A stretch of DNA of 64,000 nucleotides from a virus: positions 1 through 64,000 of IMG/VR virus record IMGVR_UViG_3300037247_000961, one strand, 5' to 3'. The notes beneath the pieces were generated by a model. The model did no database searches and was not told where the DNA came from. It was given only the letters and a program-made list of their open reading frames with translations. The translations under genes were made by a program, and so were the position numbers. Below are positions 2,609 to 41,777 of this stretch, piece by piece (position 1 is the first letter of the stretch; each line of letters opens with the position of its first letter).

Positions 2609-2829
2609 GGTGGCCGCGGGCCGGATTCGAACCGGCTCTGGGACTTCAGCAGTGAGGCGCAGTCCCGCCGTGTATCAGGCCTCGCCGTGACAGTATGACC
2701 AGACCATCCTATCGTTTGTTGCAAGCGCTGCACCCTTTAAGCCTAGCGCCAACGAATAGGCCAGTAACCCGACAGTAACCCTCGCGACCCTCACACTTCC
2801 GAGCGTGTCCCCACCACGCCGCCGCGTCC
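2609..2829 (-). ncRNA. tRNA-like RNA (~221 nt) with a large structured insert in place of the anticodon arm
   Basis: 5' GGACGCGG pairs with 3' CCGCGGCC-A-CC; D-like hairpin GCGTG/CACGC; perfect T arm GCCGG-TTCGAAT-CCGGC; internal hairpins. Confidence 0.65.
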
Positions 2830-2948
2830 ATAAAATTGCGCCAGTACCTTCATGCTCTCAGGGCCCGTCGGCCCCAACGACCCCTATGTGGGGATCGATC
2901 GATTCGCATGTCCCCGCGCTGACGCGGACCACGGGGAAGGGTTCCACT

Positions 2949-3284
2949 TTATCCGATGGATGCCTCCGACAATTCATCTGACCTATCGCGGATTTCACCT
3001 TCAGGCGTAACCTCGGAGCCATTGACCTCGTCCGCCGGCACCTCGGTAAACTCCGCGTCGATGGTATCCTTGGCCGATGCAGCCTTGGCCTGCGGCTGCC
3101 GATGTATTGACGGGAAGGCCTCCTGGTGCGCCACACGGGGGGCAGCCACAAAGCAAAGCCCTTCGCCGCGGCGGTACAAGTATCCACCCTCAACTTTCAT
3201 GCGGTATGTGGAATGGGTGTAGTCATCGCCCTCGTCCACTTCTTCCCATTTATTCATGATACTTCCCTCTATTTCGAGCATCAT
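2949..3284 (-). CDS. Hypothetical protein with acidic C-terminal tail
   Basis: ORF; TYRMKVEGGYLYR beta-rich motif. Confidence 0.6.
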   Translation of the reverse strand: MMLEIEGSIMNKWEEVDEGDDYTHSTYRMKVEGGYLYRRGEGLCFVAAPRVAHQEAFPSIHRQPQAKAASAKDTIDAEFTEVPADEVNGSEVTPEGEIRDRSDELSEASIG

Positions 3285-3616: not shown

Positions 3617-3790
3617 TTATCGTTCACGCTTGACCTGATACAGATGACCACCCGACTCCATTCGGTTCCTATAGTCATGGTCTCCCCGTTTACGCCACCG
3701 ACGATCCGCCAAAAGAGCACCGACCCACAGACCTCCAACAAGAGCATAGGCCGCTACAATCCAGGCAATTTGTGCTTCCGTCATAGTCAT
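3617..3790 (-). CDS. Small single-TM protein
   Basis: Hydrophobic N-terminus, basic tail, ATGA overlap. Confidence 0.5.
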   Translation of the reverse strand: MTMTEAQIAWIVAAYALVGGLWVGALLADRRWRKRGDHDYRNRMESGGHLYQVKRER

Positions 3791-4383
3791 AGCCTCAGCC
3801 CCTTCCAACTTTCGTCTCCGTCGATGGTCATTTTGAATAATTGACGCGCTGCCGTATGGTAGATTACTATTCCCTCGGGAGCCATGAACCCTGGTGATGC
3901 CAAAGAGCCGGTATCCTTTAGATCGTAAAGGGTTTTATGGATGGCCTCGGTTTCAAACAGGCCTTCATAGAGGACTGGTACAACATAGCAATGCTTTAGC
4001 TGTTCGTCCTCTGCCCATTGGCTGGTGTTGAAAAGGGAAAACCTCTTTTCCAAACCATACCCACGCTGGATTCCAGATCCCCACCATTCGCCAAAGTGAG
4101 TCCCGTAGCCAAGTTCAAGGACCAATGCTTCCGCATGAGCATGCACCCAACGAGCAAAGCCAAAATTGTCTCCGGCTCCTTTGGGCGTGAGAAATCTCTT
4201 ACGGCTTGCCGCCACTACGGCAAATTCATATATACCGTAGCTAACTATGAGAGCCTCCGCAGGAACCTCCCCCTGGGCATCAAGAATCCAAATACTGGCA
4301 TTGGTCCCATCGATCTTCTCCGTGATAATGCACTCACGCGAAAGACGAGGTATTTTAGGGAATGGTTCAAAAGTAATCATCAT
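3787..4383 (-). CDS. RNA ligase (Rnl2-like nucleotidyltransferase domain)
   Basis: FPKIPRL N-terminus; motif I TEKIDGTN, FGEW, EGIVI, FK motifs; start reassigned to MMITF. Confidence 0.8.
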   Translation of the reverse strand: MMITFEPFPKIPRLSRECIITEKIDGTNASIWILDAQGEVPAEALIVSYGIYEFAVVAASRKRFLTPKGAGDNFGFARWVHAHAEALVLELGYGTHFGEWWGSGIQRGYGLEKRFSLFNTSQWAEDEQLKHCYVVPVLYEGLFETEAIHKTLYDLKDTGSLASPGFMAPEGIVIYHTAARQLFKMTIDGDESWKGLRL

Positions 4384-4559
4384 TGCCTCGTATGCCATTC
4401 GATGGCGTGGCACATAGATACAATACCCCACGCGATCATCAAGTTAGTTGTCAGGGTTTCGGATATGGAGAGCCCTGCCCAAGCGATCAGCGTTATAATG
4501 ATGGCGCAGATGACGGCCAGACTTGCGGCGAACTTGGATGGCGGATAATCCTGCATCAT
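4380..4559 (-). CDS. 59-aa membrane peptide (2 TM)
   Basis: Fills the gap with 4-bp overlaps on both sides; hydrophobic. Confidence 0.5.
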   Translation of the reverse strand: MMQDYPPSKFAASLAVICAIIITLIAWAGLSISETLTTNLMIAWGIVSMCHAIEWHTRQ

Positions 4560-5425
4560 AGAAGCCTGTCCTGAAACCTGTATGCCGTAGTCAAGGCATC
4601 GACGACGGTTGCTGGTAGCACTTTACGATTGGCAATTTGGCCATGGTAAAAGGTTGGTTGTGCATCGACGCCGGCACTATCGATATATCTTTGCATTAGC
4701 GCATGTGCATCATCGAAATGGAGGTGGATGATTTCCTTTCGCTCTACATACCCAGACTGTTTGATAGCGCGCTCTACATTGGAGGTTTCCGGTCCAATAT
4801 CCCACGCTAAGAGCGGCCCAAAATAGATGGCGCTGTTCTTGAAATTGTAAGTGGCCCAACGCTTGAAGACGTTTTGAGCCTTGCCAAACACATACCCATC
4901 TTGGATCAGACTGCCGGGGTAGTCAATCCATGCGGCCATGTAAAGCCACCGCTGGGCCTTAATGGATTTATCGGCCACAAAGAGTCCCCGTCGCCGCTTC
5001 GTGTTTGACCATTCCTCTGTGAAATCGATGCAGCGTGCTCGCCAAATAGGCCAAAGCTTCTTGGCCAAGGCCTCATCGCCTTCGTCCATGGCGTCCTTAT
5101 AGTCTTTTGCCACTAGATTGGTCAAGCCATAAAACAATTCGCGACGGCGGCGCCTGTCAAATTCGAAGTACACCTTGCCAAAATTGTTACGCCTAATATC
5201 TGTGACTAGTTCATTGAACAGTCCTTCCCAGTGTCTGCAAAACAGGCACCGAGGATTGTGTTTATGATTCGTCCCAAACATTGCAAGCGGCAACCAACGA
5301 TGGCACGCCGGATAGTTAGGGTCATGGCTTGTGCATTCCTTGCGCGTGTCGTTGAGCGGCAATGTCTCCGGATCTATAAGGCGGTCCATGTTAATCTGTT
5401 GCATATCCATTACAATCGCTCCCAT
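4556..5425 (-). CDS. Hypothetical protein with N-terminal Cys cluster (C..C..CLFC)
   Basis: 289-aa ORF; no family recognised. Confidence 0.7.
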   Translation of the reverse strand: MGAIVMDMQQINMDRLIDPETLPLNDTRKECTSHDPNYPACHRWLPLAMFGTNHKHNPRCLFCRHWEGLFNELVTDIRRNNFGKVYFEFDRRRRRELFYGLTNLVAKDYKDAMDEGDEALAKKLWPIWRARCIDFTEEWSNTKRRRGLFVADKSIKAQRWLYMAAWIDYPGSLIQDGYVFGKAQNVFKRWATYNFKNSAIYFGPLLAWDIGPETSNVERAIKQSGYVERKEIIHLHFDDAHALMQRYIDSAGVDAQPTFYHGQIANRKVLPATVVDALTTAYRFQDRLL

Positions 5426-10970: not shown

Positions 10971-11503
10971 ACTCCTCGCGCATGCGCTTGTTGTTCGCTA
11001 CAGCCCCATCCCAGGGCCATGCGGGCGATATAAGGGGCATCCAGCCATTTGGAAGCCCCCGACAAACGGTCTAATGTCACCCTCCAGGCACCACGAGGAT
11101 CGTATTACCTGACAATGGTAACACAGCCATCGATGGAACCTTATTCGCCATGGACCGTATCTGGAGTGCGCCTTTGCGGCCGTAGTCCGAGTCAAACTTG
11201 ATATCGACGTATGTATCCACATCAAAGTAAAACCGCACCACGGCGCTATTGCGAATAGCGTCAGCGTCGTGTTGCGTAGCAAATTGATGATCCGCTGCAT
11301 CGATATAGCCACGCTCATCAATTATAATGGTCCGTTTCATGCTTTGGTTCCTCCTCCACAATCCTCGGCCCGTAGCCGGCTGAACAGGATCAGGTCGACC
11401 TCATCCAGGTCCATTGTAGAGATGCGCGTGTCCGTATAGCCCAGGGCGCGCAATGCCCCAATGTCGCGCGGTGAAATCTTCACCCGGTCAGATACGGCAC
11501 TGG

Positions 11504-32489: not shown

Positions 32490-33023
32490 TTAGTTCCGGT
32501 TTTCAGGCAGCCGCGTCCATTTGTACTTGGCATAAAACTTGATGCACGGCTCGGGAAAGTTCAAAGCTCGACGCTCAATGGATTGTGTTAAGTATAGCAG
32601 ACTTTTTTCACAATGTCGATTCCCAAATGCAATTTGCTCCTGGCACCACACCCAAGACTCCAGAAGATCGATGGCGTTAAGCCAGTGGAAATCTTCATCC
32701 GTGAGAGATTCAAATCCTTCATACATCCCCCACGTTTGAAGCGCAGCCATGTTGGCTTGATCGTAGGCTTCAAAAAGAGATTCATGGTACTGAGGCGCAG
32801 GCCGCGGCATATCGCCAACCCATCGCTCAGCTCCATCGTGCCAAAGCAAAGCCTTGATCAAAGGGACTGAGGGACTTGGGTGCAAGACGAGCAACATGCT
32901 CACTGCGTCATAGCTATGCTTGCCCACGGTGTATTCGCCCATGTGGGGCACGACATGGAACCGCCGAACGTTGCCGGCTTCCCTGGTAGCCTTGACGCGG
33001 TCTACCTCGCTAAGTTCGATCAT
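32490..33023 (-). CDS. HD-domain phosphohydrolase (YfbR-like 5'-deoxynucleotidase fold)
   Basis: VRRFH, TVGKHS, HDGAERWVGD, D.LE. Confidence 0.85.
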   Translation of the reverse strand: MIELSEVDRVKATREAGNVRRFHVVPHMGEYTVGKHSYDAVSMLLVLHPSPSVPLIKALLWHDGAERWVGDMPRPAPQYHESLFEAYDQANMAALQTWGMYEGFESLTDEDFHWLNAIDLLESWVWCQEQIAFGNRHCEKSLLYLTQSIERRALNFPEPCIKFYAKYKWTRLPENRN

Positions 33024-34014
33024 CGATTCTCCTTAAAAGCCATTCGTTCGCGGCACCTTGCCAATCGGAGGCCCGTACTAGTGATACAGTATCCAGCGCC
33101 TTTCGGGCGCCGTCCATATTGAGGCCGGCTGTCGATTTGTATTGATCCCAAACTTGCCACATGGGCGCCGCCACGTGCCGGAAGAAAGGATCACGCATTC
33201 CCATGACCGGCCCTTCATCGAGGAACATGGACAACTCTCCAAGCCAGGCATCCGAATCGATGGTCGCAATAGGGACAAGGACCGCTAGAGGAGGATAAGG
33301 ATTGCTTGGAGGAAGCTTGTGAAATGAGTTCTTGATTAAATCCAATACCTTGGTTTCCGCCCCAAGGCAATTGGCTACAATTGTCATGCGCCCAATAGGG
33401 ACACTGATCGCCTTAGCAATGAACTCTTGCATCATGGAAAACACGATAGCGTCCAGACGCATGTCGAAGATATCGGCGTCCCTGTATACCACCATCATAT
33501 CCAACCGTTGAGCGTGGTTGATGCTTAGATATAGATGCGTCGCTGCAGGTAGATTCCGGCTTGTACTGCCGAAGTCCTCCCCAGCATCCCACAACGAGAT
33601 CACTGCAGCCTTGTGCCCAGGGTTGTTACGGAGCATATGAACCACGGATTTCAGTTGATCAATAGTGCCAGCCTGGTAATCCATGCCAGGATCGAAGTGC
33701 GCCCGCATGCGTTGTCCATATGCCCCATGAAGTATCTTACCATCATCACTCGTGCCCCCTTGATAGCCATCGAACTTAGCCAGAAACGTAACGTCATTGC
33801 GGCCACCGAGCACCCATAGACTTGTGAACAGTGCGACGAACGGATTCAGGTCATACTCAGTCCCACGTGACAATCGCTCCATGGGCTCCGTCATCATGAG
33901 GGCCACGGGACTGGTTATCTCGGTCATGTGCCTCTTGGGCTGTCCCTCATCGAAAAGCAATTCCAGACCCTGGGGTATGACCTCGTGCATGTTGCGGCCA
34001 TAGATCATTTGCAT
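33010..34014 (-). CDS. Thymidylate synthase-fold dUMP hydroxymethylase homologue, apparently catalytically dead
   Basis: NPF..LW.LGGRND, SDDG..HGAYG.R, DQL, LWD scaffold retained; PC replaced by PA, RSND by RDAD, HxY absent. Confidence 0.8.
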   Translation of the reverse strand: MQMIYGRNMHEVIPQGLELLFDEGQPKRHMTEITSPVALMMTEPMERLSRGTEYDLNPFVALFTSLWVLGGRNDVTFLAKFDGYQGGTSDDGKILHGAYGQRMRAHFDPGMDYQAGTIDQLKSVVHMLRNNPGHKAAVISLWDAGEDFGSTSRNLPAATHLYLSINHAQRLDMMVVYRDADIFDMRLDAIVFSMMQEFIAKAISVPIGRMTIVANCLGAETKVLDLIKNSFHKLPPSNPYPPLAVLVPIATIDSDAWLGELSMFLDEGPVMGMRDPFFRHVAAPMWQVWDQYKSTAGLNMDGARKALDTVSLVRASDWQGAANEWLLRRIDDRT

Positions 34015-37579: not shown

Positions 37580-37655
37580 TGGTAGCGGGGGCCGGATTCG
37601 AACCGGCGACCTTCAGAATATGAATCTGACGAGCTACCAACTGCTCTACCCCGCA
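37580..37655 (-). tRNA. tRNA-Met(CAT), initiator-like body with altered anticodon stem
   Basis: TGCGGGGTAGAGCAG.TGGTAGCTCG, 1:72 mismatch, TCAGA-TTCATAT-TCTGA, CCA. Confidence 0.92.
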
Positions 37656-41323: not shown

Positions 41324-41777
41324 CTTCGTTCTCCAGTTCTCGGTTCATAGTTCATAGATTGCAGCCCATCACACTCACCACTTCGCAGGTGACGCGGTGC
41401 GCCCCTCTAAGGACGCTGGGGGTTTCATTTATAAAGGCATTGAACCCCTAAGCTCTAGCCTATACAATATGCGCCGGCCGGGGCGTGACTCCTAGCACAG
41501 CATCCGCTTTCCCTTATCCAATATGGGCGTCTTAATTCAACAGGCTGATTAGACCTATTGGTATCCGGTTATGTGACCGGCTCCTTATGACACCTCGGCG
41601 CATGTAGAATATCAGACCAATTCCACAGTCCAGTTGTATGCTCATCTGGCGCAGGCTCTATCACATGGAGCATCTGGGATAAGTGATAATGCAATCGATC
41701 ATCGATGTAACTATCACAATCTCTCGGCTCAGACTTTGCACCGCAGACTAACGTCCCGTCGCATCGCCATCTAAGGC

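Follow-up and report, generated by a model that had tools for sequence, protein, structure and literature searches.

Bacterial selenocysteine tRNA (tRNA-Sec) has an 8/5 fold with a 13-bp acceptor/T stack, an extended D stem and a short loop, and it is, with tRNA-His, one of the known substrates with an 8-bp acceptor. Closer to the element reported here is RNA2 of phage T5 (rna2; GenBank AY543070, misc_RNA, 32959-33083), which is annotated as "tRNA-like stable RNA with unknown functions". Its stability rests on this database record, and no paper giving the function of the T5 tRNA-like stable RNAs was found in the literature searched. RNA2 reads CAUUCUAG-CG-UGGUU-GAUGGGGA-AACCA-[69 nt]-GCAGG-UUCGAAU-CCUGU-CUAGGAUG-A, is kept in more than 400 T5-like phages, and covaries in its fold (11 pairs changed on both sides, with 0 of 500 shuffles reaching the observed values), the Epseptimavirus D stem UGGUG/CACCA being compensatory relative to T5. 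Other non-decoding RNAs, namely YrlA (the bacterial and phage Y RNAs) and T4 species 1 RNA (rnaC), have T arms that mimic tRNA (PMC4201824). Here, we examined a tRNA-shaped element on the minus strand of IMG/VR record IMGVR_UViG_3300037247_000961. The phage genome is 94,430 bp long and has direct terminal repeats, and its first 64 kb make up the window (i.e., the whole stretch of DNA analysed). Judging from its sequence and from its relatives, the element probably (at roughly 60%) encodes a small RNA of the T5 RNA2 type, which is tRNA-shaped and non-decoding and is composed of a conserved chassis and a lineage-specific insert.

The element is a 219-base minus-strand gene (2829->2611), and its parts, from 5' to 3', are as follows.

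2830..2837 (-): presumed RNase P leader, AU-rich, AAUUUUAU, directly 5' of the element, with cleavage putative
2822..2829 (-): acceptor 5' strand GGACGCGG, which pairs with 2612-2619 in 7/8 positions and takes positions 1-8 of the covariance model R3 (see below)
2820..2821 (-): linker CG, in the place of tRNA nucleotides 8-9
2803..2819 (-): D-like arm GCGUG / GUGGGGA / CACGC, with a 5-bp stem and a 7-nt loop
2637..2802 (-): insert of 166 nt, which replaces the anticodon arm and the variable loop
2620..2636 (-): T arm GCCGG UUCGAAU CCGGC, with a canonical T loop
2612..2619 (-): acceptor 3' strand CCGCGGCC, whose 8 nt give the 8/5 layout
2609..2611 (-): discriminator-like A (2611), then CC (2610-2609), with G at 2608

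This anatomy bears out the original prediction for the locus, which had described a tRNA-shaped RNA whose acceptor and T arm follow an 8/5 fold and whose anticodon arm is replaced by a large insert. The 8-bp acceptor helix with an A.G mismatch at pair 3 was found as described (7/8 pairs, with A3xG as the sole mismatch), as was a long D-like stem (5 bp, GCGUG/CACGC). The T arm, said to be identical to that of the Met tRNA of the phage, agrees with tRNA-Met (37580-37655(-)) over 19 nt, i.e., the T arm and two further bases. More than 150 nt had been placed between the arms, and the insert indeed measures 166 nt, with no supported anticodon stem-loop within it. The 3' end reads ACCG rather than ACCA, again as predicted; since the base after CC is G, the terminal A of CCA is not encoded. 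Two relatives introduced below (L240/L241) likewise read ACC, and CCA is not encoded in most other members. All three tRNAs of this phage encode CCA, unlike the tRNA-like element.

Compared with T5 RNA2 as it occurs in Tequintavirus and Epseptimavirus, the element has the same 8-bp acceptor, CG linker, 5-bp D stem and D loop of the form G(N)NGGGGA. Where the anticodon arm would be, both have an insert closed by a helix (a possible one in the element); the T arm that follows is canonical, and the 3' strand is 8 nt long, mostly with A as the next base. RNA2-type RNAs and the element alike tolerate mismatches only at acceptor pairs 1-3, and both are without an Rfam family or an ARAGORN call. They differ in the insert (166 nt in the element vs 69-71 nt in T5 RNA2, with unrelated sequences), which in T5 RNA2 includes a second T-loop-like hairpin that was not seen in the element, and in the variable region before the T arm (maybe ~10 nt vs 4-5 nt). 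Moreover, the element is solitary, whereas T5 RNA2 lies within a tRNA cluster. A covariance model built from T5 sequences only (R2) gave the locus 13.7 bits, in contrast to the high score of R3, because R2 is too sequence-specific. The description of the RNA as an uncharacterised tRNA mimic thus stands in part: it has no Rfam family, but it does have a named precedent in T5 RNA2, a tRNA-like stable RNA of unknown function.

Further members of the family were obtained by filtering the results of two IMG/VR pattern scans for structure (the D-arm motif and acceptor pairing of 6/8 or better), which sampled the size and host range of the family. They include the following.

L241/L240: GGAUGACG-CG-GCGUG-GUGGGGA-CACGC-[144]-...-CGUCAUCC-A-CC; insert of 144 nt
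L285: GGGCGCGG-...-[60]-...-CCGUGCCC-A; insert of 60 nt, with an acceptor similar to that of the element
L263: acceptor UGAAUUGG/CCAAUUCA; insert of 51 nt
L279: acceptor UUGAUCGG/CCGAUCAA; insert of 66 nt
L174: acceptor AUCUGCUG/CAGCAGAU; insert of 87 nt, within a cluster of 19 tRNA genes
L176: insert of 65 nt
L201: insert of 27 nt

These chassis RNAs, together with those of L212, L259 and other contigs, share with the element the identical or near-identical D arm CG-GCGUG-GUGGGGA-CACGC and the 8/5 layout, and they differ from it in the length of the insert (~22 to 144 nt) and in that some stand in tandem arrays or tRNA clusters. In the unrelated contigs L241, L263, L285 and L201, the D arm is identical to that of the element. 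Across the members, the D arm is nearly invariant, and the acceptor and T stems vary freely yet stay paired; the acceptors of L241, L285, L263, L279, L174, L176 and L201 are entirely different in sequence yet paired. A CG linker is present in 12/12 tabulated chassis sequences and also in further model hits. As further traits of the family we took a D loop of 7-9 nt that starts with G and ends in GGGGA, and a T arm whose loop is of the UUCRANU type; the element has both. The inserts of the members, ~22 to 166 nt long, are unrelated in sequence, and so are the host phages, with no protein similarity found in the tested loci L174 and L176.

The stems of the chassis covary. T5-type members carry compensatory D-stem changes (UGGUG/CACCA and UGGUU/AACCA), and among 12 chassis sequences 210/216 cells of the pairing table were paired, with changes on both sides in 13/18 pairs. 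All six unpaired cells fell at acceptor pairs 1-3, the zone in which the element has its own AxG. For a formal count, we used an alignment of ten members with the element left out, in which 96.6% of the cells were paired (vs 67.1% when shuffled), 12/18 pairs had changed on both sides (vs a shuffled average of 8.1), and the covariation score was 0.783 (vs 0.159). Sliding the 3' partners by 1-3 columns left only 34-40% of the cells paired. The covariation expected of a genuine RNA family by the original prediction was therefore found in its phage relatives.

The same ten sequences, again without the element, were used to build the covariance model R3, with which we searched all 64 kb of the window. 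The best match was 2611-2829(-), at 51.7 bits (E = 1.7e-11), recovering nearly exactly the span first proposed (2609-2829) and, with it, the tRNA-shaped 8/5 fold with a large insert. The second-best match in the window was the tRNA-Met, at 19.2 bits. In 0.9 Mb of pattern-fetched loci, R3 gave 16 further matches with inserts of ~22 to 129 nt. The element thus has the fold of this family and belongs to it.

Two contigs among those matched by R3 hold chassis RNAs in tandem, each array with different inserts: three copies in one contig (L212:4502-4683, 5483-5622 and 6071-6212, all (+)), and two in another (L259:10843-10958 and 11062-11231, both (-)). In L176, a second tRNA-like stretch lies ~25-170 nt downstream of the chassis RNA (locus ~610-755, - strand), with a T arm GCGGG-UUCAAUU-CCCGA followed by CUGGGCC-ACCA; ARAGORN calls it neither tRNA nor tmRNA. 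Two RNAs carry another kind of chassis, namely T5 rna1 (L165:1502-1645 (-)) and an RNA of Acinetobacter phage AB1I1M-1 (L171:126-240), which have a tRNA-Leu-type D arm (GGAAUUGGUAGA / UGGUGGAAGA) and not the GGGGA type. The Acinetobacter phage RNA contains part of the T5 RNA2 insert, and chassis types and inserts therefore appear to mix.

Standard detectors overlook the family. At the locus, default ARAGORN and Rfam (at the gathering threshold and at E <= 10) returned nothing, in agreement with the original prediction that no known Rfam family would match. The Rfam tRNA model (RF00005) matched the T arm only, at 12.4 bits vs a cut-off of 29, and neither the tRNA nor the tRNA-Sec model matched anything beyond the T arm. 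For the relatives, Rfam 15 holds no family for T5 RNA2 nor for two other members, and ARAGORN called none of the members, one dubious relaxed call excepted.

How much of the chassis could arise by chance was estimated by keeping the real 3' part and randomising the 324 nt upstream. An acceptor partner matching the 3' strand in at least 7/8 positions appeared in 76% of the random trials; requiring also a perfect 5-bp D stem two bases on reduced this to 3.5%, acceptor partner, D stem and CG linker together were met with in 0.3%, and an acceptor partner with a D stem whose loop ends in GGGGA in 0.017%. Therefore, the acceptor alone proves nothing, and the whole chassis is far beyond chance. For a fixed 8-mer against a random 8-mer, pairing in at least 7/8 positions is estimated at ~0.6% with G-U allowed.

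The acceptor/T stack with its T loop is what RNase P, the 3'-end trimming enzymes and the CCA-adding enzyme recognise in tRNA, and an RNA that has a 13-bp stack and no anticodon arm would be poorly suited to normal decoding. The lack of an anticodon arm and the 13-bp acceptor/T stack of the element argue for a non-decoding RNA. We infer that the RNA is expressed in this phage, that it is processed, and that it has some function. It would be transcribed along with the leftward (minus-strand) genes and cleaved by RNase P after the AU-rich leader, a similar leader (CAUUUUAA) being present directly upstream of the phage tRNA-Met. The 3' end would be trimmed to A-CC, with the last A supplied by the host CCA-adding enzyme, and the D loop and T loop would form the tRNA elbow. 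The product would be a stable RNA of ~220 nt, whose conserved upper body may bind a tRNA-recognising protein and whose insert may serve as a lineage-specific module. The most likely role would be exerted through occupying a protein that recognises the tRNA upper body. The roles first proposed (decoy, ribosome ligand or processing scaffold) are guesses at this stage. Such an RNA might compete for, or act as a decoy of, a host nuclease directed at tRNA or a tRNA-handling enzyme; alternatively, the chassis might be a handle that matures and stabilises a variable insert.

Several points weigh against this interpretation. The filter through which most of the new members passed demanded the D-arm motif and at least 6/8 pairing, and the pairing percentages are therefore partly selected, although the observed 7-8/8 pairing and the covariance-model score go beyond what the filter explains. 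The acceptor of the element itself contains the A3xG mismatch. No close relative of the phage was found, leaving the conservation of its own copy and of its insert without a comparison. The 166-nt insert is the largest among the chassis RNAs seen, and the minimum free energy is ordinary relative to shuffles (z of +0.27 for the insert and +0.67 for the whole element); the inner hairpins of the original prediction are present as sequence, but they do not make the insert more stable than its shuffles. Finally, a decoy or handle function is pure inference. The element could also be a dead copy within a live family.

A more far-reaching version of the function, to which we give some tentative weight, is that the chassis is a general phage "carrier" that uses host tRNA maturation (RNase P, 3' trimming, CCA addition and perhaps modification) for interchangeable RNA cargoes, with the 166-nt insert as the active part (e.g., as a protein sponge, aptamer or regulator), or else that the chassis, with its A discriminator and CCA end, is aminoacylated for a non-ribosomal use. 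If either the carrier or the charged chassis were true, it would constitute an undescribed modular RNA system of phages. Regardless of function, the T5 RNA2 layout is no oddity of T5, as the 8/5 chassis is spread over unrelated uncultured phages, and a working covariance model now defines a family that is missing from Rfam and invisible to tRNA finders. It thereby becomes testable which molecules bind the chassis, whether it counters tRNA-directed host defences and whether it carries cargo. The gain at this locus itself is modest, i.e., one more member, which is unusually large.

Among the explanations that deny a T5 RNA2-type RNA, the best surviving, although unlikely, is that the element is a decayed or rearranged class II tRNA-Leu-like gene that lost its anticodon arm to an insertion and is now a functionless relic. 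Its 3' 27 nt match an alphaproteobacterial tRNA-Leu(UAA), one extra C apart, and its 5' region (GGCGGCG-UGGUGG..ACAC) resembles the 5' half of tRNA-Leu. Furthermore, the same 27 nt are present in a broken tRNA-like fragment of a Nitrobacter genome, the element lacks the terminal A of CCA, its fold shows no unusual stability, and the phage itself is a singleton. Against a relic, many unrelated phages carry the same chassis (8-nt 3' strand, CG linker and identical D arm) with acceptor changes that are compensatory, and an independently built model scores the element at E = 1.7e-11; random decay would not be expected to converge on one layout. A profile of the tRNA-Leu 5' half does not single out the site in the genome, and a tRNA-Leu covariance model gives only 14.9 bits and picks yet another 5' strand. 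The 7-bp tRNA-Leu register (GGCGGCG + UG + GUG...) was rejected on account of the Leu models and of the comparison with T5 RNA2, which shows that the 8-bp register is the right one.

The Nitrobacter fragment came to light when IMG/VR, metagenomes and genomes were scanned for an exact 28-mer and 22-mer. The 22-mer of the 3' end matched once in 185,579 species genomes, namely in a Nitrobacter metagenome-assembled genome, and the same sequence was the only metagenome match. The match lies in a degenerate tRNA-like fragment of 73 nt (L115:7454-7526 = L116:1454-1526), between motA and a gene for a major facilitator superfamily (MFS) transporter. It has 27 nt in common with the element, including the extra C that gives the 8-nt 3' strand, and is unrelated upstream; ARAGORN does not call it, and it was absent from the 80 related genomes searched. 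In a related alphaproteobacterial genome, an intact tRNA-Leu(UAA) shares the T arm of the element, and its 3' strand differs only in lacking one C.

Less likely than a relic is a cis-acting, tRNA-like processing or stability signal within a polycistronic mRNA; instead of a trans-acting RNA being released, cleavage by RNase P or RNase Z would then define the 5' end of the downstream open reading frame (ORF) 2132-2587. The 3' end of the element lies only 21 nt upstream of the start codon of this ORF and 7-8 nt upstream of its ribosome-binding site, and neither a promoter nor a terminator of its own stands out at the locus, as such a signal would have it. On the other hand, the homologues in T5 and L174 are located in tRNA clusters and not before genes, T5 RNA2 is annotated as stable, and a role as leader is at odds with the tandem copies of L212 and L259.

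With introns allowed, relaxed ARAGORN called a tRNA-His(GUG) with a 138-nt intron at the element, which would mean a gene spliced to a decoding tRNA, perhaps by the RNA ligase (PF09414) encoded 1 kb upstream; the 8-bp acceptor is also a tRNA-His trait. We regard this as very improbable. Intron tRNAs were likewise called in 273/400 trials after the upstream sequence had been randomised, and shuffled genomes gave about one such call each, which renders the call worthless, and Rfam gave no group I intron or ribozyme match. Moreover, the inserts of the relatives (22-166 nt) have no common anticodon loop, and no RNA ligase is seen near the other members. Compared with tRNA-His and tRNA-Sec, the element is without an anticodon arm, a supported GUG or UCA anticodon, and the long variable arm of the Sec type. 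The 8/5 layout is all that it has in common with tRNA-Sec, and nothing else points to selenocysteine.

Still more improbable is an RNA resembling a reduced tmRNA, which would be aminoacylated and would encode the tag ATNDRMVWSYCHGEA*. Like tmRNA, the element joins a tRNA-like upper body to a large internal domain in place of the anticodon arm, it has an A discriminator, and it contains an open frame that starts with GCA ACA AAC GAU. The tag-like frame of the original prediction (2722-2675) thus exists, but it gains no support from the relatives, which have neither a frame nor an insert in common. The analogy with tmRNA did not hold up either. Pair 3 is AxG and G3:U70, the alanine identity pair, is missing, as are a pseudoknot and a tag architecture; ARAGORN found no tmRNA at default or lowered thresholds, and Rfam no tmRNA family at E <= 10. 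The 8/5 layout and the 5-bp D stem, which is a real one, are not tmRNA features.

A phage attachment site at the 3' end of a host tRNA, suggested by the 27-nt identity with the Nitrobacter chromosome at a tRNA-like 3' end, is scarcely credible, as the 94-kb genome encodes no tyrosine integrase (PF00589) and no serine recombinase (PF00239), no intact tRNA gene of the 185,579 species genomes contains the 22-mer, and the 5' half of the chassis would be left unexplained. The lack of integrase, resolvase and TROVE genes removes the attachment site together with a Y RNA. YrlA is permuted (its T arm precedes its D arm), has its two ends within a Ro60-binding stem and is Ro60-linked, whereas the arms of the element follow the order of tRNA. 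We found no Rfam match to Y RNA and no TROVE (Ro60) protein in the phage genome, and YrlA was rejected as a candidate. T4 rnaC does have a T arm, but by eye only 5/8 candidate acceptor pairs and no such D arm, and R3 found no match in it at E <= 1e-4.

Among fetched loci amounting to 2.18 Mb, the insert of the putative RNA2-type element has no relatives, and the phage's own genome contains no antisense match to it of at least 12 nt. A possible closing helix (2801-2797 with 2651-2647, and 2794-2789 with 2657-2652; CGGAA..GUGAGG with CCUCAC-UGCUG) stands where the anticodon stem would be, and T5 RNA2 likewise has a helix there. The insert contains a tandem repeat (GGGUUACUG twice), which is no genome-wide motif; nor is the GGGTTACTG repeat. 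In most members, the D arm is followed at a distance of a few to ~20 nt by a GAGG(G) motif (window ~2791-2783; columns 40-41 of alignment A5), e.g., GCGAGGG in T5, UGAGGG in L174 and GAGGUG in L201, with GUGAGGG and GCGAGGG in the element. It may be a conserved tertiary or junction element.

The element occupies the minus strand of a 360-nt gap (2588-2948) between ORFs 2949-3284 and 2132-2587, in the orientation of the sense strand of the neighbouring genes. The minus strand holds the large ORFs of the phage, its tRNA genes and the genes around the element. A codon model trained on the phage's own genome marks the gap as non-coding, with the small ORFs in it (2709-2831 and 2584-2733) scoring -3.4 and -6.2, vs +10 +/- 4.9 in real 40-codon windows. 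Both flanking proteins are orphans, and the upstream neighbour is also encoded by a second contig of 6 kb. Searches for relatives of the proteins of 2132-2587, 2949-3284 and 4556-5425 were all empty with respect to kin of the phage or locus, and blastn against phages likewise found no relative of either. By its primase, which is 45-58% identical in amino acids to those of YuA/PaMx11-like Pseudomonas siphoviruses, the phage is a distant relative of this group, in which a search with the tRNA model found no such element.

The RNA ligase is the one exception among neighbouring ORFs that otherwise had no Pfam, PHROG or PDB match.

3787-4431 (-): RNA ligase (PF09414, PHROG 548), 1 kb upstream of the element

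Its proximity to the element is suggestive, and it is unlinked to the other members of the chassis family. None of the unannotated neighbours was recognisable as a polynucleotide kinase partner. Homologues of the ligase that are 45-55% identical occur in many phage contigs, some of them beside large tRNA clusters and tmRNA genes (L003, L076 and L078); 80 phage loci rich in tRNAs and tmRNAs were reached through such homologues, among which no common neighbourhood was found.

In the whole 94-kb genome, hairpins like the T arm are confined to the element, the three tRNAs and one G-U-rich hairpin at 41449. The latter (AGGGG UUCAAUG CCUUU, 41433-41449 (-)) lies outside any tRNA call and is probably due to chance. 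As for the tRNAs, the tRNA-Met(CAU) at 37580-37655 (-) has a U1xU72 mismatch atop its acceptor stem, and the third tRNA of the phage is a tRNA-Thr(UGU) at genome position 84131-84205 (-), beyond the window.

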